Positions 9,077-33,089 of a DNA stretch of 64,000 nucleotides are shown one piece after another. The position numbers were made by a program, and so were the translations under genes. The first letter of the stretch is position 1. Each line of letters begins with the position of its first letter. The stretch lies in the NCBI GenBank assembly GCA_016722705.1, contig JADKGN010000001.1, positions 512,744 through 576,743 on the forward strand. Reading direction: 5' to 3'. Source of the DNA: Candidatus Dechloromonas phosphoritropha (GTDB lineage: Bacteria; Pseudomonadota; Gammaproteobacteria; Burkholderiales; Rhodocyclaceae). Below the pieces are notes generated by a model that was given only the letters and a program-made list of their open reading frames with translations, was not told the DNA's origin and did no database searches.

Positions 9077-9083
9077 ATCAGCA

Positions 9084-10090: not shown

Positions 10091-10101
10091 GCTCCCTCTA
10101 G

Positions 10102-11130: not shown

Positions 11131-11173
11131 TGGGGGGCTACAGGCGCAGGTCGGATTCGGTAGCGGGAACGCA

Positions 11174-13263: not shown

Positions 13264-13265
13264 AG

Positions 13266-14087: not shown

Positions 14088-14113
14088 CAGTCGTTGGGAA
14101 AAGGAGACTCGGC

Positions 14114-14857
14114 ATGCACGATTCGTCAATCAGGAAATCAGGGTTCTGGTGCGCTTTCGCCTGCCTGGTGTTGCTGATCGCTGCCCGGCCCACCTTTGCT
14201 GAAAGTCCGGCGCAGCCGATATCGGCGACACCAGCCCCGGTCGATAATGCTTTGTTGGAGCGCCAGTTGGCGCCCGCCTCGACGGAATTGGACGAATACC
14301 AGATCGGCCCGCACGACCTGATCGAAATTTCGGTGTTTCAGGTGACCGAGATGTCGCGGACGGTGCGTGTCAATGCCCAGGGATTGATCTCGCTGCCCTT
14401 GCTTGGCATCGTGCGCGCCGGCGGGCTGTCAGCCAACGAACTTGAAGCGACCCTTGCCGCCAAACTTTCGGAAAACCTGCTGCAGGATCCACAGGTAAGT
14501 GTTTTCATCAAGGAATTCGCCAGCCAGCGCGTCGTGGTCGAAGGCAGCATTGTGAAACTCGGCGTTTACCCGCTTACCGGCAAGACGACACTGATGCAGG
14601 TCATCGCCATGGCTTCCGGAATCGATCCCGTGGCCGACCCGACCAATATCCGGATATTCCGCCAGCTTCCCGACGGCAAGCGCGAGGTCTTGACCTATGA
14701 TCTGATTGCGATTCATGAGGGCAAGGCGGAAGACCCGTTGATCAAGGGCAATGACACGGTGATCGTCGGGCGCTCCGCTTCCGCGGCTTTTTTCAGGGAT
14801 TTCATCAACGGTGTCCGCGGTTTTGTGGGGTTCGGCACCATCCCCCTGGTTCATTGA
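14114..14857 (+). CDS. wza: Polysaccharide export outer-membrane protein (Poly_export + SLBB)
   Basis: Signal peptide, ...YQIGPHDLIEISVFQ...VNAQGLISLPLLG. AAGGAG RBS at 14101. Confidence 0.85.
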   Translation: MHDSSIRKSGFWCAFACLVLLIAARPTFAESPAQPISATPAPVDNALLERQLAPASTELDEYQIGPHDLIEISVFQVTEMSRTVRVNAQGLISLPLLGIVRAGGLSANELEATLAAKLSENLLQDPQVSVFIKEFASQRVVVEGSIVKLGVYPLTGKTTLMQVIAMASGIDPVADPTNIRIFRQLPDGKREVLTYDLIAIHEGKAEDPLIKGNDTVIVGRSASAAFFRDFINGVRGFVGFGTIPLVH

Positions 14858-14924
14858 TCCCTGATCAGCGGCGCGCATGGCAAAGTCACGCGATCGTGCT
14901 TTCTGATTTTCATCGGTCCGCACT

Positions 14925-17189: not shown

Positions 17190-18583
17190 GCGGTAACAGC
17201 ACGGATTCGGGTTCTGACTGCATAGCGCTGGCAATTGCCTTTTTTCAGGCGCCGAGCCAGTTTCCCGAGCTGCTGCGCGGCGAAGGCCGTTTGCCGCGCG
17301 GCGTCAACGAGTTGCTTCTGGTTGCCGCCGGCAATCCACGCGCCGCCGGCGAAAAACCACTTACCCCTTTCGTGCACCCAGAAAAATTGCGGGAGACGGC
17401 CAAATTCTTCATCGAGCAGGTCTTGCTGGCGCATCACGCGAGTCACTATCGCGTTTTTGGCGTCGAGCCCGATGCGTCGCTGGCAGAGATCAAGGACAAC
17501 CACCGTCTCCTGATGCGGCTCTTCCACCCGGACCGCCAAACCACCGAGGCCGACGGCGCCACCGCAATCGCGACCCGGATCAATCAGGCGTATACCGTCC
17601 TCCGCTCTCCCGATGCACGCGCCGCTTATGACTTTTCATTGCAGCAAAAGCACGCAACCGCAAGGAAAAACCCCACCTATCATCCGCTGCCCAGCCACGC
17701 GACCGCACCATCGGGAAGGGCATTTACTCTCCCGCTCTTCGTTTCCCGCCACTTGGCGCCGGTTGTCCTCGGCAGCTTCGCGTTCGTGGCCGCCCTCGGC
17801 GTTGCCCTGGTTTATTTCAATCGCGTGCCAGCGAGCGCGCCCGGCACCGGCGAGCGCGCGTATAAGCTCAAGCCGGAAATGGCGCTGGCCAGGCCGGAAC
17901 CGGCAGCAATGCCGCTCGAGCCGCCAGCGCAGTATCTGCGGTCAGAAGCTTCCACCCGGCCACACGAGCCGCCGGCCAGCATTGCGGGCGTCATGGACCA
18001 GCCAGTTGAGACAGCGCCGACGTCGCCGCCCGACCGACAGCCGATGCCGGCCAACGACTATAAGCAACCCCGGAGCGAGCCAGTCCGGGCGCCCTCCCCG
18101 GCGCCACCGTTGGCGATGCCCGGAGCTAAGCCGGTGCTGGCCGCAACGACGAAGCCGGAGCGAATCGTGGCGACTGTTGCGGTCAACCCGCCAGAGGCAC
18201 CGGAAACGAAGCCGCCACAGCCCCGACCCCAGCAACTCGAGAGCCTGATCGCCAGTTTTTCCGAGCGCTATCAGCAGGGCGATCTCGAGGGCCTGCTGGC
18301 GCTGTTCGACGACGCCGCGCGCATCGACCGGGGGGGAGACAAGGCACAAATCCGCAACGAATATGGCGACCTGTTCCGCAATTCGGAAACGCGAACGATG
18401 TATATCTGGGACATGTCCTGGAATCCCCGGGGCAAGGCCGTGCGCGGCAACGGTCATTATCAGTCGCGCGCGATCGGCAAAGCCGACCGCTCGCCAAGGA
18501 TTTACGGCGGCGATATCACGATCGACGTCCTGCAGCTGGACGACAGGCCGGTGATCGTCGGGCTGTATCGCCGAGGCAACTAA
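17186..18583 (+). CDS. J-domain membrane protein with Pro-rich linker and NTF2/SnoaL-like C-terminal domain
   Basis: HYRVFGVEPDASLAEIKDNHRLLMRLFHPDR. One TM segment. ATGA overlap with the wzc stop. Confidence 0.65.
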   Translation: MSGNSTDSGSDCIALAIAFFQAPSQFPELLRGEGRLPRGVNELLLVAAGNPRAAGEKPLTPFVHPEKLRETAKFFIEQVLLAHHASHYRVFGVEPDASLAEIKDNHRLLMRLFHPDRQTTEADGATAIATRINQAYTVLRSPDARAAYDFSLQQKHATARKNPTYHPLPSHATAPSGRAFTLPLFVSRHLAPVVLGSFAFVAALGVALVYFNRVPASAPGTGERAYKLKPEMALARPEPAAMPLEPPAQYLRSEASTRPHEPPASIAGVMDQPVETAPTSPPDRQPMPANDYKQPRSEPVRAPSPAPPLAMPGAKPVLAATTKPERIVATVAVNPPEAPETKPPQPRPQQLESLIASFSERYQQGDLEGLLALFDDAARIDRGGDKAQIRNEYGDLFRNSETRTMYIWDMSWNPRGKAVRGNGHYQSRAIGKADRSPRIYGGDITIDVLQLDDRPVIVGLYRRGN

Positions 18584-20306
18584 CCCGGATGTTTCATAAA
18601 CCCGCCGCGCGATGTCAATGTCGTGCCATTCCAGCCGTGATGCGAGTCAGCTTGCTGCGAATTTTGCTGCCAACCCGCCACGATCGGCCAAATACCCCAA
18701 CTTTTGGGCATCACACCCTGCCGCCATCGATCCCTGGACAGAGCGCTGGCGAGACCTCACCTCCGCTCAAGCGGATTCGAGTCGGCAGCATGAGACGGCG
18801 TCGCCGAGTCGATCAGGCCGGTGCCGGCGGGCGCGGGACGAGGTAAAGCAACTCGGTCACCCGCGCCAGCACCCCCTTCATCGGACACGACGTAGGCAAG
18901 GACAGCTTGATCCGATCCTTGTACTGCACCACGCGCACCGCCAACTTAAAGAGTTTCAGGATAATCGACAGCGGTTGCGCCTTGGCCAGTTCCGTATGCA
19001 CCAGCGTGTTCTCGCGCAAGCCGTGAATCAACCCATACGCCGCACACGAATAGAACAGCCGCAGGTGATTGGCGAGGAAGGCATGATCGGAGGTCCGGTC
19101 ACTGGCCAAGTCGTTCTTCACCGCCTTGATGAAGTTCTCGTCCTGCCCTCGAGCACAGTACAGCTCTTTGTAAAGCACATCAGGCGTCGGGTCGGACAGC
19201 GAGGTCACCACGTACCGCGGGTTGTCACCCAAGGCCATCACCTCGGCCTTGACCACCACGCGGTAAGCCTTGGGCCACGAGCCCGCCTGATACTCGATAT
19301 CGTCGTACAGTCGTGTCGCCGCAGGCTCGGCGTTCCCCAGGCGCTGGGCGTTGGCGCTGTGTGTCTGGTGCAGCGCACGGGCTTTCTTCAGCAGCGGCTC
19401 GGCCTTGGGCGAGAGCACCTGGTTGCCGGCCAGGCCGAAGAGGAAGTCCAGATGCGGATCGGACGCGCACAAGGCCATCAGTTCGGGATTCGAGAAGTGG
19501 CCATCCCCGCGCAGAATGATGTGGGTCTCGGGCCAGGCCTGGCGGAGCAGGTGCAGCACGCGCTTGATGATGACCGCATTCTCTTTACCGGTGGGACGCT
19601 TGCCCGGACGCAGGACGGCGGTGATCAGCTTCCCGGAGAGTCCTTCGAAGAGGAACAACGGCAGGTAGCAATGATTGCCGTAGTGGTGGTTGTAGAACGC
19701 CAGTTCCTGCTGCCCGTGAGTGGCATCCTCAGAGTGATCCATATCCAGCACGATCACGGCAGGCGCTTGGGCGTAGCTGGCGATGAAGGCGTCGACGAAG
19801 CTTTTGGCCAGGCGGTAAATGTCTTTGCGCGATACGCTGTTCTCGAGCCGGGAGAGCGTGGGGCCGGAGGCCAGGTCATTTCCCTCGCCCAGCGGGGCAC
19901 GACCGACCGCCAGTTTGAACAGCGGATCGCGCCGCAGCGTGTTGGCGTCATTACCGTCGGCGTAGCCGCTGGCGGTCTGGAATATCCGCTGACGAAGCAG
20001 GTCGGCCAGCGGATGGTCAATGTACGAGGCGTGGCGTTTGTCGTGAATCGCGCTGACCAGGCGGGGAATCAGGCCGATTTGCAGGTCGATGCCACGCAAC
20101 AGGAGTGCGCCAAAGTCGGAGGACATCGCCCCGCCGTCAAACTCTGCCCGGATCGTAAATCCGGCGCTGGCGGGAAAGCGAAGCTGGGTTGGGATAGAAT
20201 GGTCCATGGGCGGTCTCGTTTAGGCTTCTTACAAAGCGTTATTGGCGTAACCCCTATTATATCAATGGGTTAAACGAGATTCGCCTGCTTTTATGAAAAA
20301 TTCGGG
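18584..20306 (-). mobile_element. IS1380-family insertion sequence
   Basis: IRs CCCGGATGTTTCATAAA and TTTATGAAAAATTCGGG. 4-bp duplication CTAA at 18580-18583 and 20307-20310. Confidence 0.85.
18813..20207 (-). CDS. IS1380-family transposase
   Basis: 464 aa ...FDGGAMSSDFGALLLRGIDLQIGL...YNHHYGNHCYLPLF. Confidence 0.9.
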   Translation of the reverse strand: MDHSIPTQLRFPASAGFTIRAEFDGGAMSSDFGALLLRGIDLQIGLIPRLVSAIHDKRHASYIDHPLADLLRQRIFQTASGYADGNDANTLRRDPLFKLAVGRAPLGEGNDLASGPTLSRLENSVSRKDIYRLAKSFVDAFIASYAQAPAVIVLDMDHSEDATHGQQELAFYNHHYGNHCYLPLFLFEGLSGKLITAVLRPGKRPTGKENAVIIKRVLHLLRQAWPETHIILRGDGHFSNPELMALCASDPHLDFLFGLAGNQVLSPKAEPLLKKARALHQTHSANAQRLGNAEPAATRLYDDIEYQAGSWPKAYRVVVKAEVMALGDNPRYVVTSLSDPTPDVLYKELYCARGQDENFIKAVKNDLASDRTSDHAFLANHLRLFYSCAAYGLIHGLRENTLVHTELAKAQPLSIILKLFKLAVRVVQYKDRIKLSLPTSCPMKGVLARVTELLYLVPRPPAPA

Positions 20307-20328
20307 CTAATAGCCCGCTTCGAAATAA

Positions 20329-20601
20329 TCAAACCTTGAGCACCAAGCCTCGTTCAGCCAGTTCCCCGGCCAGTTTGATGACATCACCCTGCAATTGCTC
20401 GGCCGTGACTTCGTACTCTTCGAGCATCGTTGCGCTGATTTCCGCCAGCGTCCTGCCCTCGCCCATCAGTTCCCAGATACGTGCGCCGACCGGGTCCAGC
20501 CCGAAGTAGCTGCCGCCTGCCAGGTCGAGGATCACGATCTCTTCACCGACCTCACGTGCCATGACCTGGACCGGGATCGTTACCTTGTCCGTCAATTCCA
20601 T
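20329..20601 (-). CDS. PqqD-family peptide-binding protein (lasso B1 / RRE)
   Basis: MELTDKV...EIVILDLAGGSYFGLDPVGARIWELMGEGRTLAEI. AGGGAG RBS 7 nt upstream. Confidence 0.8.
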   Translation of the reverse strand: MELTDKVTIPVQVMAREVGEEIVILDLAGGSYFGLDPVGARIWELMGEGRTLAEISATMLEEYEVTAEQLQGDVIKLAGELAERGLVLKV

Positions 20602-20611
20602 CAATTGCTCC

Positions 20612-21460
20612 CTAAATTTCAGCCTGTTCGAGAATGGCCCGGCGCACCGCCGGCAACGCGGCGAACGATCTTGGATAATCAAGTCGGAAAACGATCGGCA
20701 AATTGGCCATCTCCGTCACCTGGTTGAAATGGGCTGACAACGACTCCCGGCCTTCAATATCGAGCAGGAAGGAATTACCCACCAGCCCCATCACGGCTTC
20801 GCCCGGCGTCATCGGCGCAAAGCTTACCTGATCGACATCGCCCGGGCCGAGGAAATACATGCGCCGCAGCATTCGCTCTTCGGAGCAAAACGCCAGCGCT
20901 TCGCCGGAAAGCAACCGCGCCTTGGAAGTGTATTGGACGGCGGGCGCCAGATGCGCGTCGTCGCCCACCAGTTCGTCCCTGCTGTCGTCCCACAGGCGGA
21001 TCGACGGATGACTGGGCTGGACCGCATAGCCACCGGCTTTGGGTTCAAGCAACAGGGCATCGTCGGCCAGGAAGCGGTGACCAGCCAAGGCGAAACTTGC
21101 CGCCAGCGTCGACTTGCCACGCCCCGATTCGCCAAGAAACGCCAGCGCACCCGCTGGAGCCTCGATGGCACTGGCATGAAACACCCGCTTGCCCTGCCGG
21201 CTCAACGCCAGTGGCAGCACCTGATTGAGATAGAGGTGCCTGATGGTCTCTTCGGAGATACCGGGAACTGGCCACGATGACACGACTTGACCATCCGCTG
21301 AAACTTCGAAATCCGCAAGTTCGGGAAAGCGCAGCAAATAGCCTGACCCGGTCCGATAGAAACGCGTCCACAGCGTCCCGTCCGGAAAAATCCACTCGTG
21401 GAAAAAAGCCGACTCAAGCGGCTCCTGCGGGGGAACATCCGCCAGATGAAAGTCGATCAC
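20612..21460 (-). CDS. HprK-related P-loop kinase
   Basis: GESGRGKSTLAASFALAGHRFLADD. GTG start overlaps the methyltransferase stop (GTGA). Confidence 0.8.
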   Translation of the reverse strand: MIDFHLADVPPQEPLESAFFHEWIFPDGTLWTRFYRTGSGYLLRFPELADFEVSADGQVVSSWPVPGISEETIRHLYLNQVLPLALSRQGKRVFHASAIEAPAGALAFLGESGRGKSTLAASFALAGHRFLADDALLLEPKAGGYAVQPSHPSIRLWDDSRDELVGDDAHLAPAVQYTSKARLLSGEALAFCSEERMLRRMYFLGPGDVDQVSFAPMTPGEAVMGLVGNSFLLDIEGRESLSAHFNQVTEMANLPIVFRLDYPRSFAALPAVRRAILEQAEI

Positions 21461-22578
21461 GACTCGGAATCCCTGCCCAGAACCTTGGCGACAAAACGCG
21501 AAATCTCCTCGGGCGAGGGAAAGAGATCGGGATGATCGCGCAAAACGGCGGCTTCGATCTGCGCGACCGTCCGCTGGCCATCGCAGTACACAAGGATCGT
21601 CGCGGTCGCCCTCCCCGTCTGGCCAAGCCGCGGCACGCGCTCGGGGTTAGCCTGCAGCAACTGCTCCGGTGTCAATAACTCGCCTTGCCACGTCGACTGC
21701 GCGAAGCGCCGTCCGGTCGCCGGAAACTCGACGACCCAGGCAATTAGATGATCGGCCGGCCGGGCCATGATTGTTGCCTTCACCCGCTCGCCCGCCTTGA
21801 CCGCAACGGCCTCATCGATGGGCAAGAAGGCCTGGTTGCGCTGGATGGCTGGTTCCGCCAACGGCGAATTGGTCATCCACACCCCTTCGGCCAGCTCACA
21901 CTCGAACCAGCCGCCCAGGCCATGCATCAACCCATCACGCTCGATATGCAGCTCAGCGTTCCACGAGAAGAAATCCGGATGATTCGCATAAAGGTCAATA
22001 TCGCCCAGCACAGCCGGCGCACAAAACACGTCGGTGCGTTCCAGACTGACGGCATGTCTGGTGTTAACCGCATGCTTACGCAGCCAGTGGAAGACTTGAG
22101 GAATGTTTTCTGCCTGCCAGGCGTTGGCCAGTTCGTCGCAGCGCTGCGAACCGACTGCCGCGACGTTCAGCCGAATTCGCGAAGGGATGAGCTTGCCGCC
22201 GGGTTTGAGAAAGCGCTTCCTGGCGTCTTCAAGAAACCCGACGATACCGTAATCGAAGCCGAAATAGCCGACATGATCGCAGATGACCACGTCCACCCGT
22301 TCCGGCAACTCGATCTGGCTCGACTTGCCGCGAATGAAGGTGGCGCGCTCACCCTGCCCGGCCCGCTGCAACGAATCGCGGGCCACGTCGGTCATGGCAC
22401 TATCGTCGATGGCGAAGACATGCCGGGCGCCAGCGTGCAGACACAAGAAGCCCAACACACCGGAACCACAGCCCAAGTCGGCAACGACATCGCCGGCCGC
22501 TAGCAACTTTCCTATGGCTGATTGATAGCGCTCAAGCCTGACTGCATCGGCGACATAGCCTAAGTGCTCTTCCAGCAT
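21457..22578 (-). CDS. Class I SAM methyltransferase, PRMT-like core with C-terminal PqqD-like segment
   Basis: VVADLGCGSGVLG...FAIDDS...VDVVICDHVGYFGFDYG...FLKPGGKLIP. The tail ATILVYCDGQRTVAQIEAAVL resembles PqqD helices. Confidence 0.7.
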   Translation of the reverse strand: MLEEHLGYVADAVRLERYQSAIGKLLAAGDVVADLGCGSGVLGFLCLHAGARHVFAIDDSAMTDVARDSLQRAGQGERATFIRGKSSQIELPERVDVVICDHVGYFGFDYGIVGFLEDARKRFLKPGGKLIPSRIRLNVAAVGSQRCDELANAWQAENIPQVFHWLRKHAVNTRHAVSLERTDVFCAPAVLGDIDLYANHPDFFSWNAELHIERDGLMHGLGGWFECELAEGVWMTNSPLAEPAIQRNQAFLPIDEAVAVKAGERVKATIMARPADHLIAWVVEFPATGRRFAQSTWQGELLTPEQLLQANPERVPRLGQTGRATATILVYCDGQRTVAQIEAAVLRDHPDLFPSPEEISRFVAKVLGRDSES

Positions 22579-22920
22579 AAACCGGTGCTAACTTTTGGGA
22601 TTGGTTGGATTCTGCGTATGACCGTGTATGCCCAGCATCCGGTCACTGAAATTTTCATGCATAGGCCACAGCAAGAGGATATTCAATGAGGGAACACTCC
22701 TCAATAAACACGGCATAGACAGGAATTCAGCACGTAAGGGTCATTATTGTAGGACGCCGATCGCTTGTTGCAAAGTGCTCCATTGACGATACGAGCAGCA
22801 TAATAAGCAGCGAGGCCATCCGTTTCATGTAATGCCTTCTCAGCGTGCCTTGTGCGAAGCGCAAATACTTTCAGCCAATGACACAAAAGCCGAAACTCAA
22901 TCTGCAGTGCAGCTTTTGGG

Positions 22921-23073
22921 TTACGGCTTCCTTCTCTGGGCAGTCATCATTGCCCCTTCGGTACTTGACCCCGCTCCCCCTTGAGTCAAAAAACGCACAT
23001 CGCCATGACGAACGAGCTTTGGCGAGGCGTAAGGTTTTTTCAGTTTTTGCTTTGGGAACGGAAAATCCGTCAT
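22921..23073 (-). CDS. Lasso peptide precursor A2 (50 aa)
   Basis: Hand translation: MTDFPFPKQKLKKPYASPKLVRHGDVRFLTQ/GGAGSSTEGAMMTAQRRKP. Leader fits YxxPxLxxxGxxxxxTx. Core has Gly1 and Glu8. Confidence 0.8.
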   Translation of the reverse strand: MTDFPFPKQKLKKPYASPKLVRHGDVRFLTQGGAGSSTEGAMMTAQRRKP

Positions 23074-23077
23074 ACCG

Positions 23078-23230
23078 TTATGCCTTCCTGGACCTCCACT
23101 TCATACTAGTGGTTTCTGAGGTCCCCTTTGACCCCGATTGAGTCAGACTGCGTACATCACCGTGGCAAACGAGATTGGGTGGGGCGTAAGGCTTTTTAGC
23201 GTCCTTTTTCGGCAAGAACTTGTCGGTCAT
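23078..23230 (-). CDS. Lasso peptide precursor A1 (50 aa)
   Basis: Hand translation: MTDKFLPKKDAKKPYAPPNLVCHGDVRSLTQ/SGSKGTSETTSMKWRSRKA. Same leader motif. Core has Ser1 and Glu8. Confidence 0.8.
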   Translation of the reverse strand: MTDKFLPKKDAKKPYAPPNLVCHGDVRSLTQSGSKGTSETTSMKWRSRKA

Positions 23231-23235
23231 GAATA

Positions 23236-25164
23236 TCACTCACTTTTTGACGGAAAAAACGCGGGATGCACATCGACCCAGCGTGCAAGAACTGCCATTG
23301 TAAACAATTGATACCCATTTTCATACTCCGCGCCCCGTTCATGCACTGCCCACGCCCGAATAAGGCGCTCTCGGTCAACCCACGTGTTCAACCTGCCCGC
23401 GAGATACTCGTGATTCCAAATCTCGGGCCGCGATTCAGCAGTTGCTGAAATCAGTTGTTCATAGGCCTTCCAGCCCGGATGACTGCCCACGTCGCAGCGC
23501 AGGCGAACAGTCTCCGGCAGCACGTCGGCGGTTGCTTCACGCATGAGATTCTTGTACCAGGGCACGCTTAGCTTTGCCGCGACCGGCATCTGGATGGCAA
23601 ACTCGATCATCCGGCGATCGGAAAATGGACTGCGCGGCTCCACCCCGCTGGCGAAGGCGAGTTGTCCATACACTTCATGGGCAAAGGAAAGCAGCCCCGA
23701 CGTAAAGCTCCGCGCATGAGTGGCCTGATCGTTGCCGGGCTTTATTGCCACCTCTCCCTGACACGCCTGGCGATGCTTCTCGGCGAGCCAGGGAATGACT
23801 TTATCGCGCTTCAACAGGGCGAGATCGTCGTGCAGCACCCGCCGCTTTTCGCGGAGTCGCCGATAGATAGTGCGCACGCCGGGCGGCGTGATGGCGGCGA
23901 GTGATCGAATCATTACCGTGCGGGTGCGGTTTTCGAAACCGTGCCTGCCGAAAGCAGTAAAAACATCCGGCAGGCGGCCCAGCATCTTTCCGCGCAGAAT
24001 GGTATCGAGACTGCGGTCAACGCCGTAAAACAGTAAATCTCCGGCCATGCCGTCGAGCACCACGCGACAACCTTGGCTCTGCCCGGCTTCATAGACCATG
24101 GCATAGGTCAGCCCGTGCGATAGCGCGAAGGGTTCATCGATCCTAGCGATATTGTCCAGACTGGCCTTGCCGCCTTCTCCCGCGACTGCCGAAGTGAGAA
24201 CGACCGGGTCGATCCAGCCATCCTTCATCATCTCCTGTATGTGCTGCCAGTCCTTGCAGTTTTCCCGGTCTTCGCGGATCAGTGAGATGGTTTTCAGCGG
24301 CTGTTGCAGGTCGCCGCGAAATTCCTTGCGGATCAGGCCGACGATGGAGGACGAATCGAGCCCGCCGCTAAGCATGGCGCCGACCGGGCCGTTACTGCGC
24401 AGGCGGCATTTCACGGCAACGCGCATTTGATCGAGAAAGGCTTCGGCACACTCTTCCAGCGAGGAGAACTTGTTGACCGGCAGATTGCCCGGCTCCCAAT
24501 AGCGCCAGGTCTTCACCCCTTGCGCGGAAACCTCGATGGCGTGCCCCGCCGGCAGACGGACGATATCCTGATAGAAGGTTCCGATCTGGTCATCGCGGTC
24601 GTATGCCTCGACAAGGTAATCGAGTACGCGCGACTCGTTCAGACGGGCGGCGATCAGGCCGGTGGCCAGCAGGCCCTTGATCTCCGAGGCAAAGCCGAAC
24701 CAGCCCCGGCCGGCGTGATAGTAGAAATGCCGGGTCCCCGCCGCATCGCGCGCGCCGAACAGGCTGCGCCGCCGCTCGTCCCAGATGAAGAAGGCGAATT
24801 CGCCGATGATGCGGTCGGGACATTGCGCCCCCCAAACCTCATAAGCGCGCAACACCAGTTCGGCATCGGTGCGGTCACGCAGGACAGCCCCGCGCCCGAG
24901 CAGCTCGTGCCGGAGATCATCGCCGTTGTCCACCCGCCCATCCATCACCAGCACGATACTTGTATCTTCGTTGGCGAGGGGCTGACATTCGTCCATAGAC
25001 TCGAGCGTCGTACGAAACATGCACTGCCCTAAGGCAACCTGGCCTTTGTGCCAATGGTGAATGCCATCCGGCCCGCGCTGCACCATGGCAGTCGTCATCT
25101 TTTCGATCGAACCAGGTTCAATTGGCGCACCATCGAAGCGGATGATGCCGGCAATGCCGCTCAT
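23236..25164 (-). CDS. Asparagine-synthetase-like lasso cyclase (C protein)
   Basis: AsnB fold with the SGGLDSS PP-loop. N-terminus is MSGIAGI, so the catalytic Cys of true AsnB is replaced by Ser. Confidence 0.8.
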   Translation of the reverse strand: MSGIAGIIRFDGAPIEPGSIEKMTTAMVQRGPDGIHHWHKGQVALGQCMFRTTLESMDECQPLANEDTSIVLVMDGRVDNGDDLRHELLGRGAVLRDRTDAELVLRAYEVWGAQCPDRIIGEFAFFIWDERRRSLFGARDAAGTRHFYYHAGRGWFGFASEIKGLLATGLIAARLNESRVLDYLVEAYDRDDQIGTFYQDIVRLPAGHAIEVSAQGVKTWRYWEPGNLPVNKFSSLEECAEAFLDQMRVAVKCRLRSNGPVGAMLSGGLDSSSIVGLIRKEFRGDLQQPLKTISLIREDRENCKDWQHIQEMMKDGWIDPVVLTSAVAGEGGKASLDNIARIDEPFALSHGLTYAMVYEAGQSQGCRVVLDGMAGDLLFYGVDRSLDTILRGKMLGRLPDVFTAFGRHGFENRTRTVMIRSLAAITPPGVRTIYRRLREKRRVLHDDLALLKRDKVIPWLAEKHRQACQGEVAIKPGNDQATHARSFTSGLLSFAHEVYGQLAFASGVEPRSPFSDRRMIEFAIQMPVAAKLSVPWYKNLMREATADVLPETVRLRCDVGSHPGWKAYEQLISATAESRPEIWNHEYLAGRLNTWVDRERLIRAWAVHERGAEYENGYQLFTMAVLARWVDVHPAFFPSKSE

Positions 25165-25200
25165 GGGAAGCGGCTCGAGGGGCAAACAGGTTCAGTCACG

Positions 25201-25605
25201 TTATCGGGTCGCAATTCTTTTCACCAGTTCCAAATACTGTTCCAGCACGCTGTCCGTAGTCAGTAAATAAGCCGGGAGGGATTGCGCTTGAGCGACGAAC
25301 AGCCGGTCAAACGGGTCGCGGTGATGCCAAGACATTTGCGCAATGGCATAACTGTGACTTGCTGCAACGGGCAATTCGGTAAAGCCGGTTTGTAACGCCA
25401 GTTGGTGGATGTCCTCAGGGAGAAAGTTGAAATAATCGCGCCCCAGAGAGGGCTCGATTGCAATTTCCCACAGGCTGGCGGCGCTGAAATAGACGATGGT
25501 TCGCGGGTCTTGCAGCAGAGATTGAGTCTCCGGCGGCAACACCTCGGGCTTGATGAGCGCTGCCAGCAATACCTTGGTATCGAGCAGCCATTTTTGCCTG
25601 GGCAT
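25201..25605 (-). CDS. vapC: PIN-domain toxin (VapC family)
   Basis: 134 aa ...LLDTKVLL...SLWEIAI...HRDPFDRL. Confidence 0.85.
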   Translation of the reverse strand: MPRQKWLLDTKVLLAALIKPEVLPPETQSLLQDPRTIVYFSAASLWEIAIEPSLGRDYFNFLPEDIHQLALQTGFTELPVAASHSYAIAQMSWHHRDPFDRLFVAQAQSLPAYLLTTDSVLEQYLELVKRIATR

Positions 25606-25607
25606 AT

Positions 25608-25850
25608 TCAGGCGTCTCCTTCAAACATGCGCTGAATGGCTTCATTGTGCAGGCTGGAAAAGTTTTCCGGCAGGTTGAATTTACCCTTTCCCAGACCCAG
25701 TGTGCACGGCTTGATCTCGGTTTCGGCTAACGCAACCAGGCGTGCAACGGGTTCCCCGGAACGGGCGATAACGATTTCTTCGCCAGCCGCGGCTTGATCG
25801 ACAAAACGCGAAAGATGGGTTTTTGCTTCGTGAATGTTGACGGTTTGCAT
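25608..25850 (-). CDS. Phd/YefM-family antitoxin
   Basis: MQTVNIHEAKTHLSRFVDQAAAGEEIVIARSGEPVARLV. Confidence 0.85.
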   Translation of the reverse strand: MQTVNIHEAKTHLSRFVDQAAAGEEIVIARSGEPVARLVALAETEIKPCTLGLGKGKFNLPENFSSLHNEAIQRMFEGDA

Positions 25851-25987
25851 CGACTTCTCCAGCTAACTCGAACATAGGCTTAGTCCAGTCCAGTCCTGTA
25901 TGCAAGGTCTAAAAGGTCGGGCCGGCGCACTGAAGGAAGTACCCATGGGGAAGGAAAGCTGATATTGAAAAATGACCGTGCTCCCGC

Positions 25988-26452
25988 TCATGAGAACTGA
26001 CTCGTCGAAACGGGTTTATCGAAGGTGGCATACCGTATGGCAATGTCAGGCACGTCGTTGATTGGCTGGCCCGCGATCTCCACCCAGGCGTGCGCGGCGA
26101 ACTCACCGTTCTCGCAGCGAACGCCGATGCGCAGATCGCTGGTCGTGCCGTAAAAACGCAGTAGCCAGCGCAGCAACAGCGAACGCGTCAGGCAACTGGT
26201 CGCCCCTAAAACACGGTTCGCCGCACGGTTAACCGCTAGCCCCAGCGCGGCAGCCTCCGCTTGGCTCAACGGCGGGCGCCGGGCAAGTGGGAAGTGATCG
26301 AGCCAAGCCTGGAAACGCTGCAAGCCGGCCAGGCGCAGGCCCAACCAGAAGAGCGGCAGCAACACCAGCGAAGCCAGCAGCACCCATTGCTCGCGTCCGG
26401 AGAGCGCACGGTAGGTGGAGAAATAATGGGTAAAGGTGGGCATCGCGATCAT
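25988..26452 (-). CDS. Lasso peptide B2 protease (transglutaminase-like)
   Basis: ...ATSCLTRSLLLRWLLRFYG...FAAHAWVEIAGQPIND (Cys/His/Asp). Confidence 0.85.
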   Translation of the reverse strand: MIAMPTFTHYFSTYRALSGREQWVLLASLVLLPLFWLGLRLAGLQRFQAWLDHFPLARRPPLSQAEAAALGLAVNRAANRVLGATSCLTRSLLLRWLLRFYGTTSDLRIGVRCENGEFAAHAWVEIAGQPINDVPDIAIRYATFDKPVSTSQFS

Positions 26453-26518
26453 GGCATCGTGAATCCGACTCCGATGTTACCACCACGCCGCTTAAGGAGA
26501 AGCTGATTTATTCCAGAA

Positions 26519-26593
26519 TTGTCATTCCGGCGAATACCCGAACCCAGAAAAATCAACGACCTGGACCCCGGCCTTCGCCGGGGTGACGAACAA
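26519..26593. repeat. 75-bp palindromic MITE/REP-like element
   Basis: Arms TTGTCATTCCGGCGAA ... TTCGCCGGGGTGACGAACAA. It gives the typical spurious ORF MSFRRIPEPRK...PGLRRGDE. Confidence 0.6.
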
Positions 26594-26639
26594 ATCAGCG
26601 TTTCCTTAATGGCTGTCGCTGTGCGCTTGGTGGGTTATC

Positions 26640-27095
26640 TCACCACCACGATAACAACGCGTGAGCAAGATGGATGTCAGCGCGTGCCAGGCATCCACCA
26701 GACGGCAGTGAAGAAGCAGCGTGACAACTAGCTTGACAAACAACGGCGTTGGCATCGTTCAATCCCCAGACGCCTCCATGACGGCAAAGATATGCTAAAA
26801 GAATGTCGATCATGGCGGCCCGTGTGCATCCGGGACGCAGAATATCCCCGTGCAGGTCGATATCGAGCCCGTTCCGGATCAGGCAGGCTTCATGGCTGGC
26901 GACTTCGGGATTGACGACGAGCTTGAATCCAGGCGTTTCCTTGGCGTCGACCGCAGCAAGCCGCGGTTCCGGGGCGATGGGGATGTCGATGTCCGAGGCG
27001 GCTCTCAATGCAGGGTCGGCATAGACGGGTTCTCTGACATAGGCACCCTTGATGACCGCGTAGCGGATGCCTTTTGCCTCGATCGGCGCTGCCAC
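26640..27095 (-). pseudogene. NTP_transf_5 nucleotidyltransferase, central fragment only
   Basis: IRYAVIKG...ASDIDIPI...DIDLHGD...LLAYLCRHGG aligns to the middle of 12049-13263. About 90 N-terminal and about 150 C-terminal residues are absent. Confidence 0.6.
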
Positions 27096-27132
27096 CAGCG
27101 CCAGGCGATGGCGATGGAACGGTCGTCGCTAC

Positions 27133-28815
27133 TCATTGCGTTGCAAGATGCGTCCCTCTCGCAATCGGCTGCGTGTCGTCGGCGATCCCTCCAGCCACCA
27201 TGCGTACGATTCGATCCGCCAGCGCCAGGCTGGCCGGACGATGCGTGATGAGGATCACCGTCCTCTTGCTCAGCGCGTGATGACAGTCTTCGATGAATGA
27301 TCTTTCGCCCTGCGGGTCGAACATTGCCGTGGCTTCATCGAGTATGAGTATTGGCGCATCCTTGAGCAGGGCACGCGCCAGAGCAATGCGCTGACGCTGA
27401 CCGCCCGACAGCTTGACGCCCTGATCGCCAATCATCGTGTCATACCCCTGCGGCAGGCGGCTAATGAAATCGTGCGCCTGGGCCGTTCTGGCAGCCCTCT
27501 CAATCGCTGCATGGTCGGCATCGAAGCGGCCATAGCCAATGTTGTCGCGCACGCTCCCGTTGAACAGCAGCACATGCTGCGGAACAATGCCGATCTGGCT
27601 GCGCAGGCTACGCAGGCTGACGCCCGCAATGTCGATGCCGTCGATCAATATCTGCCCGCCATCCGGCTCGTGAAGTCGCATCAGCAGATGGACGATCGTG
27701 CTTTTCCCGGCACCGTTTTCGCCGGTAAGGGCCACCGTTTCTCCGGCACGAATGTGCAGGTCGATGGCTTGCAGCGCCGGAGCGCGTCCGGGGTAGGCGA
27801 AGGTAACATCACGAAACTCGATTTCGCCGAGCACCGCCGGTAGTACCCGGTCACCGTGAAATATCGGCTCGGGAGATTCGTTGAGGACGCTCTGCAGTCG
27901 TTTCAGGGTCCCGCGCGCCTGTTGCGTCTGGCCGTAAATGCTGGCCAGCGCACTGACCGGGCGCGTCAGGAGCGCGGCGTAGAGCAGGAAGCTGACCAGT
28001 TCCGCCGGCGTCATGCTGCCGTCACCAACCCGCTCGCTCGCCAGCCAAAGGATGAGCAACACCGCGGAAGCGGCAACGAACTGTATGGAAGGCTCGAGCG
28101 CGGCGTGGATTTTATGCTCGGTCATGCTGAGGTGAAAGATACGCAGAATCTGCTTGCGATAGCGTTGTGATTCCTCTGGCTCGCGCGTAAAGGTCTTGAT
28201 CGCCGGCAACATGCCGAGATTTTCCTCGGCGATGCCAACGGCGGCGGCATGTTCCGCCTGCAACTGGCTGGCAAGCGGACGCAACCGGCGCCCGATGATC
28301 TTGAGCAGCAGATAGAACAAGGGAATCAGTACGGCGATCATGACGCCAAGCAGCAGATCGGTACGGAACAGGACGAATACCGCACCGGCCACTGTCAGCA
28401 ACTGCGGAATCATCTGCAACAATGTGCCGGTGATGAAACCGGACAGTTGGGCAGCCTCGAAAGTAAGCATGGCCAGAATGTCGCCCTGGCGCCGTTGATG
28501 ATAGAAAGCGAGCGGCAAGGCCTGCAGGTGATCATAAATACGAACACGCAAATCCGCCAGAATCCGTTCGCTGGTGCTGCCCAACAGATAAGCGTTGGCA
28601 AACTTGAGTAGCGCCTGCACGGCAAAGAGCGCGAGCAGGATCAGTAATATTGGACCGACGTTGGCTTGGCTGCCCGCCAGCAAATCGCCAGCGAAACGAC
28701 CTCCCAGCCAGGGTATGGCCAGCACCGTCGCGGTTTCGATCAGCATCAGGATGCCGGCAAGGGCGAGACTGACTCGATATGGCGCGGCGTAACCCAGGAG
28801 CAAGCGTAAATTCAT
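27133..28815 (-). CDS. ABC exporter, fused permease/ATPase (McjD-like role inferred)
   Basis: Six-TM domain plus GENGAGKST, LSGGQRQR and ILILDEAT. It ends soon after GTH, so it may be 3'-truncated. Confidence 0.85.
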   Translation of the reverse strand: MNLRLLLGYAAPYRVSLALAGILMLIETATVLAIPWLGGRFAGDLLAGSQANVGPILLILLALFAVQALLKFANAYLLGSTSERILADLRVRIYDHLQALPLAFYHQRRQGDILAMLTFEAAQLSGFITGTLLQMIPQLLTVAGAVFVLFRTDLLLGVMIAVLIPLFYLLLKIIGRRLRPLASQLQAEHAAAVGIAEENLGMLPAIKTFTREPEESQRYRKQILRIFHLSMTEHKIHAALEPSIQFVAASAVLLILWLASERVGDGSMTPAELVSFLLYAALLTRPVSALASIYGQTQQARGTLKRLQSVLNESPEPIFHGDRVLPAVLGEIEFRDVTFAYPGRAPALQAIDLHIRAGETVALTGENGAGKSTIVHLLMRLHEPDGGQILIDGIDIAGVSLRSLRSQIGIVPQHVLLFNGSVRDNIGYGRFDADHAAIERAARTAQAHDFISRLPQGYDTMIGDQGVKLSGGQRQRIALARALLKDAPILILDEATAMFDPQGERSFIEDCHHALSKRTVILITHRPASLALADRIVRMVAGGIADDTQPIARGTHLATQ

Positions 28816-29180: not shown

Positions 29181-30158
29181 ATGAAACCGAGTGAAATCGT
29201 TGCCCAGTTGAACCGCTTCGTGATCGGCCAGAACGACGCGAAGCGGATTCTCGCCGTCGCCGTCTATGCGCATTTCCGCAAGGTGGCGATGAGCGATGTC
29301 GATCGACTGGAGATGCTGAAGAGCAACATCCTGCTGATCGGCCCGACCGGCACTGGCAAGACGCTGCTCTGCGAAACGCTGGCGCGGGTGCTCGAATTGC
29401 CTTTCGTTACCGCCGACGCGACGTCGCTGGCGCAGACCGAATATGTGAATGAGGAGCTCGATGCCATCCTGCAGCGTCTGCTCGAACGCGCCGGCGGTGA
29501 TCCCGAACGGGCCGGGCGCGGCATCGTCTTCATCGACGAGGTGGACAAGCTGAAGGCGATCAGCGGCCAGGCGCGCGCCGCTTCGGGCGAGAACGTCCAG
29601 CACGCGCTGCTCAAGATCATGGAAGGTTCCCTAATACGCCTCAAGAGCGGCCAGACGATCGATACCAAGCAGATCCTGTTCATCTGCGGCGGCGCCTTCG
29701 TCGGGCTGGAAAGCATTCTCGCCGAGACGCAGGCTTTCGGTTTCATCGCCACGGCGGCGAGCGACGACCAGAAGATGCTCGACCGCCTCAACGCCCGCGT
29801 CAAGCCGACCGATCTCTTTCGCTTCGGCCTGATCCCGGAGTTCGCCGGCCGCCTGCCGATCATCGCCCGGCTCAAGGAGTTGTCGAAGGACATGATGGTG
29901 CGCATCATGATCGAGCCGCAGCATTCGATCTACCGCCAGTTCCGCGCCATCCTGCAGAACGAGGGCGTCGAGCTGGTGATCGAGCCGGCGGTGTTCGGGC
30001 AGATCGCCGACCTCGCGCTCGAATTCAAGGTCGGCGCGCGCAGCCTGCGCGGCCTGTTCGAGGAAATGATCACGCCGGTGCTCTACGTAGTGCCGGATCG
30101 ACCCGAGGTGAAAAAGGTGGTGATCCGCTCGCTGTTCGAGGAAGCGGTCTTTTCCTGA
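29181..30158 (+). CDS. ClpX-like AAA+ ATPase lacking the zinc-binding N-domain
   Basis: VIGQNDAKRILAVAVYAHF, GPTGTGKT, IVFIDEVDK, GENVQHALLKIMEG, LIPEFAGRLP. Confidence 0.8.
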   Translation: MKPSEIVAQLNRFVIGQNDAKRILAVAVYAHFRKVAMSDVDRLEMLKSNILLIGPTGTGKTLLCETLARVLELPFVTADATSLAQTEYVNEELDAILQRLLERAGGDPERAGRGIVFIDEVDKLKAISGQARAASGENVQHALLKIMEGSLIRLKSGQTIDTKQILFICGGAFVGLESILAETQAFGFIATAASDDQKMLDRLNARVKPTDLFRFGLIPEFAGRLPIIARLKELSKDMMVRIMIEPQHSIYRQFRAILQNEGVELVIEPAVFGQIADLALEFKVGARSLRGLFEEMITPVLYVVPDRPEVKKVVIRSLFEEAVFS

Positions 30159-30722: not shown

Positions 30723-33089
30723 ATGCGCCTCAATGTTCTCGCCTTCGCCGCCGGCATCATCGCCCTGCAGATGCAGCCAGAACTGCCGCCGGTGTGGCTT
30801 TGGGCGCTGGGCGGGCTGCTGCTGGCGCTGCCGGCGCTGCGCTGGCGCAACGCGTTGGCAGCTCGCGGGCTGCTGCTGGTGGCCTGTTTCGCCCTCGGTT
30901 TTGCGTGGGCCGGGTGGCGTGCCGAGCTGCGGCTGGCTGAGGAACTGCCAGGCGCATGGGAAGGGCGCGATGTCGAGATTATCGGCGTCGTCGCGAGTTT
31001 GCCGCAGGATTTCAGTCAGGGCAGCCGCTTCGAATTTGACGTGGAAAGGTGGTTGACCGCGCCCGACAGGATGTACCCTTGGGGTACGGAAGCCGTCGTT
31101 CCCCAGCGGATCATGCTGTCGTGGTATCAGGGGCGACGCGACGGCGAAGCCTTCGAACGCCCGCCGCTACGCCCCGGCGAACGCTGGCAACTGACGGTGC
31201 GCCTCAAGCGGCCGCACGGCAACGCCAATCCTAACGGCTTCGACTATGAAGCTTGGCTGCTCGAACGCGACATTCGGGCCACCGGCTACGTGCGCCAGAA
31301 CCCGGCGCAGCGCCTGGACGAGATGGTCTGGCGGCCATCCTATATCGTCGAACGCCTGCGCCATCAGGTGCGCGCCTCGTTTGCGGCGATGCTGCCGGCC
31401 GATCGCTACCCGTGGGCCGGTATCCTGGTGGCGCTGGTGGTTGGCGATCAGAAGGCGATCCAGGGCGACCTGTGGACGACCTTCAATCGCACCGGAACGA
31501 CGCATCTGATGTCGATATCTGGGCTTCATGTGACGATGGTCGCCGCCTTGTTCGGGCTGCTGATTGGCGCGCTGTGGCGGCGCGTGCCGGCGTTCGCCCT
31601 GCGTCTGCCGGCGCAGCGGGCAGCGGTGCTGGCCGGTTGTCTGGCGGCTTTCTTCTACGTTCTACTCGCCGGTTTCGCGGTGCCGGCGCAGCGCACGCTA
31701 TACATGCTGCTGGTTGCCGCGCTGGCGCAGAGTTCGGGGCGCATCGTCGCGCCCAGCCGCACACTCGCCCTGGCGCTGCTGGTGGTCCTGCTGATCGACC
31801 CGTGGGCGGTGCTGGCAGCCGGATTCTGGCTGTCGTTCGGCGCGGTCGGCGCACTGCTTTATGTCGGCGCGGCGGTGGTCGGCGAAGCTGGGAGGGGTGG
31901 CAATGGCGGCGGCTGGCACGAAAAACTCCGCGCCTGGGGCGTCGTCCAATGGACGGCAACGCTCGCTTCGCTGCCGGTGCTGCTGCTCGTCTTCCAGCAA
32001 TTTTCGCTGGTTTCGCCGCTGGCCAACGCGCTGGCGATTCCGGTGGTCAGCTTCATCGTCACGCCGCTGGCGCTACTCGCCGCCGTCATTCCGTGGTGGC
32101 CGATCGCCGCGCTGGCGCATACGGTGCTCGGCTGGTTGATGGTTTTCCTCGAATGGTGCGCAGCTTGGCCAGTCTGGCTGGCGCCGGCACCGCCGCTGTG
32201 GGCGGCAATCATCGCCGGATTGGGTGTGGCGATCTGCCTGCTGCCGCGCGGCATGCCGGGGCGTCTGCTCGGCGTGGCACTGCTGCTGCCGGCCATTTTC
32301 TGGCCAGTCGAGCGGCCACCCGAAGGCGAAGCCTGGGTAACGGTGCTCGATGTCGGGCAGGGCCTGGCGGCCGTGGTGCGGACCCGTGATCACACGCTGC
32401 TCTATGATCCGGGGCCGCTCTACAGCGCCGAATCGGATGCTGGGCAACGTGTGGTCGTGCCCTACCTGCGGGCGCTCGGCATCAACAAGGTGGACGTCCT
32501 GATGGTGACGCATCGCGACAGCGACCATGCCGGTGGCACGGGATCGGTCAAGGCGGCACTGGCGGTCGGCAAGGTGGTTTCGTCGCTCACCGAGATCGAT
32601 GGCGAATTGTGCAGCAATGGCCAGCACTGGGACTGGAACGGCGTGCAATTGACCGTGCTGCACCCGGAAATGGACGATTATGTTGAGAAGCGCAAGAGCA
32701 ACAACCTGTCGTGCGTGCTGCGCATCGACGCTGGCGGCAAGCGCATGCTGCTGACTTCCGACATCGAGGCGCGCGACGAGGTTGCCCTGCTGCAGCGCGA
32801 TCCGGTGGCGCTGAAGGCCGACGTGCTGCTGATGCCGCACCACGGCAGCCGCACCTCGTCGACGCCGGCCTTCATCGCCGCTGTCGGCGCGCCGGAAGTG
32901 GTGATTCCGGTAGGCTACCGCAACCGCTTTCGTCACCCCAAGGCTGACGTGGTCGAACGTTACGCAGTAACCGGCGCGAATCTGTGGCGTACAGACCGCG
33001 ACGGGGCGCTGCGGGTTTCATTGAGCGAAGGCGGCGCCACACTCGGCGCGTGGCGCACCGAACATCGCCGCTACTGGCATGGTCGGTGA
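30723..33089 (+). CDS. comEC: DNA internalization competence protein ComEC/Rec2
   Basis: 788 aa. Competence-domain TM core (...FNRTGTTHLMSISGLHV) plus a metallo-beta-lactamase C-domain (HRDSDHAGG). Confidence 0.9.
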   Translation: MRLNVLAFAAGIIALQMQPELPPVWLWALGGLLLALPALRWRNALAARGLLLVACFALGFAWAGWRAELRLAEELPGAWEGRDVEIIGVVASLPQDFSQGSRFEFDVERWLTAPDRMYPWGTEAVVPQRIMLSWYQGRRDGEAFERPPLRPGERWQLTVRLKRPHGNANPNGFDYEAWLLERDIRATGYVRQNPAQRLDEMVWRPSYIVERLRHQVRASFAAMLPADRYPWAGILVALVVGDQKAIQGDLWTTFNRTGTTHLMSISGLHVTMVAALFGLLIGALWRRVPAFALRLPAQRAAVLAGCLAAFFYVLLAGFAVPAQRTLYMLLVAALAQSSGRIVAPSRTLALALLVVLLIDPWAVLAAGFWLSFGAVGALLYVGAAVVGEAGRGGNGGGWHEKLRAWGVVQWTATLASLPVLLLVFQQFSLVSPLANALAIPVVSFIVTPLALLAAVIPWWPIAALAHTVLGWLMVFLEWCAAWPVWLAPAPPLWAAIIAGLGVAICLLPRGMPGRLLGVALLLPAIFWPVERPPEGEAWVTVLDVGQGLAAVVRTRDHTLLYDPGPLYSAESDAGQRVVVPYLRALGINKVDVLMVTHRDSDHAGGTGSVKAALAVGKVVSSLTEIDGELCSNGQHWDWNGVQLTVLHPEMDDYVEKRKSNNLSCVLRIDAGGKRMLLTSDIEARDEVALLQRDPVALKADVLLMPHHGSRTSSTPAFIAAVGAPEVVIPVGYRNRFRHPKADVVERYAVTGANLWRTDRDGALRVSLSEGGATLGAWRTEHRRYWHGR

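Follow-up and report, generated by a model that had tools for sequence, protein, structure and literature searches.

A split-B lasso peptide cluster in Candidatus Dechloromonas phosphoritropha that probably belongs to a widespread subfamily with a PRMT-fold methyltransferase and an HprK-like kinase

What kind of product is specified by the run of minus-strand genes at positions 20329-28815 of a 64,000-nt stretch of DNA (hereafter the window) from Candidatus Dechloromonas phosphoritropha? A preliminary description of this DNA had proposed a lasso-type cluster, a class of ribosomally synthesised peptides that are modified after translation (RiPPs), in which a kinase, a methyltransferase resembling protein arginine methyltransferases (PRMTs) and a nucleotidyltransferase serve as tailoring enzymes. 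We based gene calls on a listing of the open reading frames (ORFs) of the window together with Pfam and NCBIfam profile scans of its proteins. Every gene of that description was found at its place on the minus strand with support from hidden Markov models, the cyclase, B2 and PqqD proteins among them. The window thus contains a complete split-B set, consisting of B1, B2, C, precursors with a leader motif and an ATP-binding cassette (ABC) exporter, and all essential ORFs of the cluster are full length. Read from its genes alone, the region is very probably an intact, selectively maintained split-B lasso peptide cluster that belongs to a PRMT-fold methyltransferase/kinase subfamily. This subfamily, which appears widespread and is uncharacterised, is marked in the loci collected here by the gene order cyclase, precursor(s), PRMT-fold methyltransferase, HprK-like kinase and PqqD. 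The kinase and the methyltransferase probably decorate the lasso peptide.

The genes for the core enzymes are readily recognised. The leader peptidase B2 (25988-26452), a transglutaminase-like Cys protease, scored 83.2 bits against the NCBIfam model lasso_biosyn_B2 (NF033537, 2e-23), for which the cutoff is 33, and also matched Transglut_core3 (1.3e-22). The motifs of its Cys/His/Asp triad, SCLTRS, AHAWVE and ND, are readable in the translation, and a protein identical to it carries the NCBI name 'lasso peptide biosynthesis B2 protein'. The cyclase C (23236-25164), an Asn-synthetase-like lactam synthetase, matched Asn_synthase (3.7e-35) and GATase_7 (5.1e-28), and its top NCBIfam model is the lasso isopeptide (lactam) cyclase NF033535 (1.2e-125). 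It starts with MSGIAGI, so that the glutaminase Cys is replaced by Ser, and contains the SGGLDS PP-loop; its score is also below the cutoff of the AsnB equivalog model. The PqqD-family RiPP recognition element (RRE) encoded at 20329-20601 (PF05402, 4.3e-20), which corresponds to B1, is the sole RRE in the cluster of the window. Two lasso PqqD models matched it at 5.8e-13 (lasso_PqqD_Bac) and 8.9e-11, both below their curated cutoffs. The ABC exporter, or lasso D protein (27133-28815; ABC_membrane 3.9e-44, ABC_tran 4.6e-36), is a half-transporter with fused transmembrane and nucleotide-binding domains that lacks a peptidase domain. In the NCBI annotation A2, B2 and PqqD are named as lasso components, and the kinase and the cyclase are 'hypothetical'.

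Two precursor genes, A1 (23078-23230) and A2 (22921-23073), each encoding 50 residues, follow the cyclase gene. The genes are tightly packed: the A1 start codon (ATG) lies 5 nt past the cyclase stop, A2 starts 4 nt past the A1 stop and is preceded by a GGAAGG ribosome-binding site, and further downstream the start of the kinase gene overlaps the stop of the methyltransferase gene by 4 nt. The leader of A1, MTDKFLPKKDAKKPYAPPNLVCHGDVRSLTQ, contains KKPYAPPNL...LTQ, and its core, SGSKGTSETTSMKWRSRKA, divides into SGSKGTSE, with a predicted Ser1-Glu8 ring, and the tail TTSMKWRSRKA. Likewise, the A2 leader, MTDFPFPKQKLKKPYASPKLVRHGDVRFLTQ, contains KKPYASPKL...LTQ, and its core, GGAGSSTEGAMMTAQRRKP, divides into GGAGSSTE, with a predicted Gly1-Glu8 ring, and GAMMTAQRRKP. 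Both peptides are thus predicted to have an 8-residue ring and an 11-residue tail, and the computed masses of the lasso forms are 2066.03 Da (A1) and 1873.89 Da (A2). A1 matched the NCBIfam model lasso_cyano at 6.4e-5, below its cutoff, and a protein identical to A2 is named 'lasso RiPP family leader peptide-containing protein' at NCBI. The exact 50-residue A1 sequence was absent from the public protein collection in an exact-sequence look-up; the consecutive NCBI accessions of A2 and the cyclase (MBL0351638 and MBL0351639) suggest that A1 is unannotated in the genome record. A library search with A2 gave 20 weak matches, the query being too short to size the family. The predicted RNA fold of the region that follows the precursors (22840-22930) was not significant (z = -1.2).

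To place these precursors in a family we used 80 related loci, obtained from a scan of one genome per species. A motif scan of these loci yielded 75 precursors in 64 loci, positioned next to the cyclase or the methyltransferase gene. Across the 74 leaders that were aligned, Y(-17), P(-14), G(-8) and T(-2) never vary, and L(-12) is kept in 68. Leaders of the type Y(-17)xxP(-14)xL(-12)...T(-2) constitute the canonical lasso recognition motif (PMC10368454, PMC12710340). Thus, the small ORFs of the window are conserved beside homologous cyclases or methyltransferases and the leader motif is kept across the family; together with the profile matches of all components, this bears out the proposal that B1, B2, C and leader-motif precursors form a lasso set. 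The Asp or Glu that would accept the ring bond is located at core position 8 in 56 of the 75 family cores, at position 9 in 15 and at position 7 in 3. Ser or Thr is present in every ring (74/74), and position 3 is the ring position richest in these residues (57% of the 8-residue rings), being Ser in A1 and Ala in A2. The tails, 10 residues long at the median, are rich in Met, which accounts for 21.7% of tail residues, occurs at least once in 71/74 tails and occupies position -2 from the C-terminus in 47%. Possible roles of these Met-rich tails are that of a methylation target, metal binding or redox sensing.

The 80 loci belong to Beta-, Gamma- and Alphaproteobacteria, Acidobacteria and a Cyanobium (a cyanobacterium), and cultured carriers include Caenimonas koreensis DSM 17982, Silicimonas algicola DSM 103371 and several Novosphingobium species. 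We searched every stop-to-stop ORF of the 80 loci with the window proteins. Because contig ends truncate many of the loci, the following counts are lower bounds. The kinase gene directly follows the methyltransferase gene in 72/80 loci, PqqD lies downstream on the same strand in 61/80, and the cyclase is encoded upstream on the same strand in 53/80 and anywhere in the locus in 68/80. The ABC exporter was found in 52/80 loci, B2 in 45/80 and an NTP_transf_5 gene beside the cluster genes in 43/80. All-against-all clustering of the ORFs of the 80 loci revealed no universal partner beyond this known set; the extra clusters were Uma2, sugar epimerase, DUF218, LptD_N or alternative-frame ORFs. Metagenomes yielded more than 1,200 homologues of the methyltransferase, nearly all of 372-375 residues, and the identical protein is encoded on 23 metagenome contigs. 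Comparison of the window with Dechloromonas SSD3 (locus L001) gave ratios of nonsynonymous to synonymous substitution rates (dN/dS) of 0.12 for the methyltransferase, 0.15 for the kinase, 0.27 for PqqD and 0.19 for the ABC exporter. These values, together with the identical methyltransferase on 23 contigs, indicate that the genes are maintained by selection.

The kinase encoded at 20612-21460 is an HprK-like P-loop protein whose motif, H95...G110xxG113xG115-K116-S117...D133-D134, has a spacing identical to that of the BsfK catalytic motif. The catalytic motif reported for BsfK and other lasso kinases is H148...G163, G166, G168, K169, S170...D186, D187 (PMC10368454). Among 74 kinase homologues, conservation of H95, G115, K116, T118 and D134 is 95% or higher. 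The likeness to HprK itself is distant, the Pfam model Hpr_kinase_C matching at 8.8e-4, below its cutoff, and a search of the PDB giving E = 0.29. Membership of the NCBIfam HprK_rel_A system (TIGR04352, 1.5e-13) was rejected, since the score of 50 bits, against a cutoff of 200, indicates that the proteins are related only. Many kinase homologues (P0138 and others) have a precomputed match to Pfam PF27840, which the local Pfam scan of the window kinase did not return. By analogy, we infer that the window kinase, like BsfK, acts on a Ser or Thr of the ring. A C-terminal Ser is found in only 3/75 family cores, and A1 and A2 end in ...SRKA and ...RRKP, respectively. Dechloromonas SSD3 has a second kinase paralogue (5435-6307) between B2 and the cyclase.

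The methyltransferase gene (21457-22578) encodes a class I S-adenosylmethionine (SAM)-dependent enzyme that matched Methyltransf_25 (5.6e-9) and PRMT_C (3.3e-6). When a profile of 16 family members was searched against the PDB, residues 7-278 matched PRMT8, 1, 3, 6 and CARM1 at about 1e-32. The AlphaFold model of the protein has a mean confidence (pLDDT) of 75.6, and its best PDB matches in Foldseek are CARM1, PRMT6 and PRMT1, at E values of about 1e-23 and TM-scores of about 0.57-0.68. Sequence and fold alike mark the enzyme as a PRMT homologue, with a Rossmann SAM domain followed by the PRMT beta-barrel, and in this respect the preliminary description was right. The sequence signatures of arginine specificity, however, are altered. 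PRMTs possess a so-called double-E loop, in which two Glu residues hold the guanidinium group. The PRMT sequence E-W-M-G-Y...E aligns with D101-H-V-G-Y...Y110 of the window enzyme (loop CDHVGYFGxDY), so that the first Glu corresponds to Asp101 and the second aligns with Tyr110, Asp109 being located one position earlier. In addition, I245-x-R247-x-Q249 stands at the position aligned with the PRMT THW loop, and the enzyme lacks the YFxxY N-terminal helix of PRMTs. Residues C100, D101, G104, G107, D109, N237, P239 and R247 are invariant in 75 homologues that share 43-94% identity. Models of RiPP methyltransferases scored far below their cutoffs on the window enzyme (ApyS, 22 bits against 400; daptide, 17 against 175).

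Beyond the barrel the methyltransferase has a C-terminal tail of about 70 residues, which had been described as PqqD-like and which the AlphaFold model folds into four helices, with no sheet. Pfam detected no PqqD in 11 such tails, even at E values up to 10, a PDB sequence search with the tail found nothing, and hhalign of the tail against the PqqD proteins of the clusters returned a probability of 2%. In a Foldseek search with the tail model the PqqD structure 3g2b had the top probability, 0.75, but with E = 1.3 and a TM-score of 0.44, and it stood among winged-helix proteins. The tail motif DGxRT..EI resembles helices 1-2 of PqqD. Given that the Pfam, PDB and hhalign searches were null and that nothing in Foldseek was significant, we do not call the tail an RRE; it may be a reduced RRE-like module.

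Some observations weigh against an intact cluster whose threaded, ring-phosphorylated product is methylated elsewhere than on arginine. The cyclase scored 420.7 bits against NF033535, which is below the cutoff of 525. The Ala at core position 3 of A2 means that the analogy with phosphorylation at Ser3 is not valid for both peptides, and the family tails, with their many small residues and Met, offer few classical bulky plug residues, so that a threaded topology is not guaranteed. The acidic active-site loop of the methyltransferase would fit a cationic substrate, and the window tails contain Arg and Lys. Finally, an inserted toxin-antitoxin pair, a flanking insertion sequence (IS) and a degraded gene point to some local decay.

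As to the substrate, the window enzyme might be a true protein arginine/lysine N-methyltransferase that acts on Arg/Lys-rich tails, as the preliminary description had proposed. Its evident kinship with type I PRMTs in sequence and fold is in agreement with this, as are the invariant D101 and D109 at or beside the double-E positions and the basic residues in the tails of the window (KWRSRKA and QRRKP) and of the close Dechloromonas relatives. However, Lys or Arg is present in 41 of the 75 family cores and neither residue in the other 34, even though the methyltransferase is highly conserved and always adjacent. Moreover, the double-E Glu residues are replaced by Asp, the second shifted by one position, THW has become I-x-R-x-Q and the YFxxY helix is missing. 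Arg/Lys-rich tails are a local trait of the Dechloromonas peptides and not of the family, whose tails are Met-rich. The altered PRMT signatures and the many cognate cores without Arg or Lys make arginine an unlikely conserved target, and we therefore consider this explanation unlikely. What all substrates have in common is Ser/Thr in the ring, a Met-rich tail, a free C-terminus and, once the kinase would have acted, a phosphate.

Outside the window, precursors of the relatives show a further feature. Peptidase_S74 is the self-cleaving intramolecular chaperone of phage tail spikes. Thirty precursors, in 28 of the 64 loci, run on past the core into a domain of about 90 residues, and this domain passed the Pfam threshold for Peptidase_S74 in all ten proteins tested, position 1 of the profile being the first residue after the core. 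Examples are found in L001 (8269-8697, 8728-9129 and 4871-5332), L007 (9507-9968), L028 (9465-9968) and L038 (9353-9952), and the third precursor of L001, S74-fused, is encoded between B2 and the cyclase (4691-5332). Carriers of fused precursors include Cyanobium sp. ATX 6A2 and a Novosphingobium. The assembly of L001 contains Ns and apparent frameshifts, and its B2 is split in two. The first three residues of the domain are SDR, SER, SDP, SAR or SCR in 29 of the 30 precursors and CDM in one, and in the S74 starts inspected a Lys follows five residues after the Ser or Cys, a spacing that we take to be that of the S74 catalytic pair. Unfused precursors, those of the window included, end where the predicted S74 cut would fall, and L023, L034 and L057 have both fused and unfused precursors. 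Searching the whole window by tblastn with the S74 domains brought up nothing beyond noise, and no S74-like frame is present in the 340-bp spacer that follows A2: the precursors of the window are truly short and retain no S74 remnant.

It is possible, and we advance it tentatively, that in this large lasso subfamily a re-tooled PRMT-fold enzyme installs a new, non-arginine methylation together with ring phosphorylation, and that an S74 self-cut frees the C-terminus of the core. A literature search retrieved no paper that ties lasso peptides to S74. If true, S74 would be the first autoproteolytic 'follower' in the precursor of a lasso peptide or another RiPP, and the methylation would be of a kind not yet seen in lasso peptides, for instance on the Met-rich tail, the C-terminus or the phosphate.

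Another explanation to be weighed is that the cluster is a decaying, silent remnant that yields no mature product in this organism. Signs of disturbance do exist. A Phd/PIN toxin-antitoxin pair (25201-25850), which is not part of the lasso pathway, is inserted between B2 and the cyclase; it comprises a Phd/YefM antitoxin gene (25608-25850, minus strand; PhdYeFM_antitox 3.9e-13) and a PIN toxin gene (25201-25605, minus strand; PIN 5.7e-8), and no such pair is present at this position in L001. An IS (18813-20207, minus strand; transposase DDE_Tnp_1_4, PF13701, 3.6e-150) sits exactly at the junction between PqqD and the DnaJ gene, which is uninterrupted in L001 and L002, and more IS copies lie nearby. 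The cluster also contains a pseudogene fragment of NTP_transf_5, and many lasso clusters are silent in the laboratory (PMC10368454). On the other hand, the essential ORFs are full length and the dN/dS values range from 0.12 to 0.27, the same arrangement with identical proteins recurs on many independent metagenome contigs, and an intact nucleotidyltransferase paralogue is kept in conserved synteny. Hence a silent remnant is improbable, and we retain the view of an intact, maintained lasso cluster. In L001 an MNT/HEPN pair (9322-10007) separates the methyltransferase gene from the precursor genes instead; insertion of toxin-antitoxin pairs into this cluster seems to be a recurrent event.

That methyltransferase, kinase and PqqD form a separate system for modifying peptides or proteins, maybe tied to polysaccharide export, beside a plain lasso cluster is very improbable. 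In favour of this reading, the module borders the DnaJ, Wzc and Wza genes in Dechloromonas, 14/80 loci encode a Wzc homologue at most 10 kb from the methyltransferase gene, and L012, L016, L017, L018 and L067 carry PqqD twice, once ahead of B2 and once following the kinase, which suggests that the copy linked to the kinase may serve the tailoring enzymes specifically. Against it, the module is located directly 3' of the precursors on the same strand in most loci and in several phyla, irrespective of the polysaccharide genes, it provides the B2 of the window with its only RRE, and ORF clustering of the 80 loci revealed no other conserved candidate substrate gene.

The nucleotidyltransferase had been counted among the tailoring genes within the cluster, and this part of the preliminary description did not hold. 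The in-cluster copy (26640-27095, minus strand) matches PF14907 at 4.2e-11 over profile positions 68-162 of 249 only and has no NCBIfam match. When seven full-length NTP_transf_5 homologues (370-448 residues) were aligned to the window by tblastn, only their residues ~100-240 aligned, to 26727-27116. Both ends of the gene are thus missing, and it reads as a dead, non-functional remnant. A paralogue on the plus strand at 12049-13263, 7 kb outside the cluster, matches the full PF14907 profile (9.5e-51). It lies beyond the genes for CpsB, Wza, Wzc and the DnaJ-domain protein and an IS, and its position relative to the cluster is kept in the Dechloromonas loci L001 and L002; this intact copy is likely to be the functional 'N' gene of the cluster.

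We propose the following pathway. The two 50-residue precursors would be translated right after the cyclase gene, and PqqD (B1) would bind the leader motif Y(-17)xxP(-14)xL(-12). The kinase would then phosphorylate a Ser or Thr in the ring region of the leader-bearing precursor, the likeliest site being core position 3, as with BsfK; a C-terminal Ser would not be the site, since the peptides have none. That the modification would precede maturation fits with the lasso kinases studied so far, which act on the linear precursor (PMC8498205, PMC10368454). The methyltransferase would add at least one methyl group to the leader-bearing precursor, probably not on arginine, with the thioether of a tail Met, the C-terminal carboxylate and the phosphate as candidate sites. 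Subsequently B2 would cleave after Thr(-2)-Gln(-1), the cyclase would link Ser1 or Gly1 to Glu8, and the ABC transporter would export the product. If phospho-glycosylation or nucleotidylation takes place at all, it would be performed by the paralogue at 12049-13263, extending the phosphate as PsmN does (PMC9266682).

Among the closest known systems is the Bsf cluster of Bradymonas sediminis FA350, which consists of bsfA, B1, B2, C, D, K and N, and in which BsfK, helped by B1, phosphorylates ring Ser3 of a linear precursor that has no C-terminal Ser (PMC10368454). Both are split-B clusters of Gram-negative bacteria and encode an HprK-like kinase, an NTP-transferase and an ABC exporter; they share the identical H...GxxGxGKS...DD spacing and a precursor without C-terminal Ser, and A1 has Ser3. 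They differ in that leader position -2 is Ile in Bsf and an invariant Thr in the window family, that no methyltransferase is among the bsf genes listed (PMC10368454), that gene order differs and that the in-cluster N of the window is a remnant. PadeK, ThcoK and SyanK, the kinases of paeninodin, ThcoA and SyanA, (poly)phosphorylate a conserved C-terminal Ser (PMC9266682, PMC8498205). Their split-B clusters likewise combine an HPr-kinase-like enzyme with an ABC exporter, and SyanK shows that Proteobacteria have such clusters, whereas the window precursors end in Ala and Pro and no PRMT-fold methyltransferase has been described for those clusters. In the pseudomycoidin pathway of Bacillus pseudomycoides, the kinase PsmK acts together with PsmN, which adds a hexose to phospho-Ser (PMC9266682). 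A kinase and an enzyme of the nucleotidyltransferase fold are thus encoded in one lasso cluster there too, a likeness drawn from its description; that cluster, however, is from Firmicutes, targets a C-terminal Ser and has no methyltransferase, and in the window the adjacent N is degraded and the intact copy lies 7 kb off.

The methyltransferases known from lasso pathways are LasF/StspM, which O-methylate the carboxyl at the C-terminus, and the PIMT-type LihM/TceM, which form aspartimide (PMC9266682, PMC11285071). The window enzyme resembles them as a SAM-dependent, cluster-encoded lasso tailoring enzyme; in contrast to the small-molecule O-methyltransferase-like LasF/StspM and the PIMT-like LihM/TceM, it is a homologue of type I PRMTs with a beta-barrel. 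With the eukaryotic type I PRMTs (PRMT1, 3, 6, 8 and CARM1) it shares the Rossmann SAM domain and the beta-barrel, and it differs from them in the extra C-terminal helical domain, the RiPP context and substrates that often contain no arginine. The literature searched contained no PRMT-fold methyltransferase in a lasso or other RiPP pathway, a mention in a figure or supplement being possible, nor any paper connecting lasso peptides to arginine methyltransferases or to this set of genes, and a 2026 review lists no modification of the arginine-methyltransferase type (PMC13352647). The preliminary description had known of no characterised cluster with this combination of tailoring genes. That remains so for the PRMT-fold methyltransferase; the arrangement is not unique, occurring in about 80 loci, and kinase plus nucleotidyltransferase has precedents in lasso clusters (PMC9266682, PMC10368454).

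Lasso identity and a kinase are ordinary; the PRMT-fold enzyme and the size of the unstudied family are not. The great stability of lasso peptides makes them prized scaffolds, and every further tailoring reaction widens what can be built on them. The target of the methyltransferase, once worked out, would give a new enzyme-substrate pair and possibly new chemistry, and the S74-fused precursors suggest a new route to the release of RiPP cores. The presence of cultured strains among the carriers makes the family open to experiment. The producers belong to the phosphate- and glycogen-accumulating bacteria that abound in wastewater plants; with the cluster adjoining genes for polysaccharide export, its peptide may play a part in the ecology of flocs or biofilms.

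Around the cluster, a terminator-like hairpin on the minus strand (20303-20317), detected by a consensus scan only, starts 12 nt past the PqqD stop and is the probable operon end; in the promoter/terminator scan, sites in the region were not enriched relative to shuffled sequences. A polysaccharide synthesis and export locus (4866-18583) adjoins the cluster and parts it from the intact NTP_transf_5 gene. Its genes encode a glycosyltransferase, a flippase, a DegT aminotransferase, a formyltransferase and an epimerase, as well as CpsB (13092-14087), Wza (14015-14857), Wzc (14925-17189) and the DnaJ-domain protein (17186-18583). The window has three transposase genes, of the types DDE_Tnp_1, Tn5-like with a dimerisation domain, and DDE_Tnp_1_4, at 2033-2962, 3000-4334 and 18813-20207. 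Directly upstream of the ABC exporter, on the opposite strand, are genes for a ClpX-like AAA+ ATPase of 325 residues without the zinc-finger N-domain (29181-30158), a small membrane protein and ComEC. The coordinates of this region are 29181-30158 and 30723-33089, and its genes are probably unrelated to the lasso cluster.

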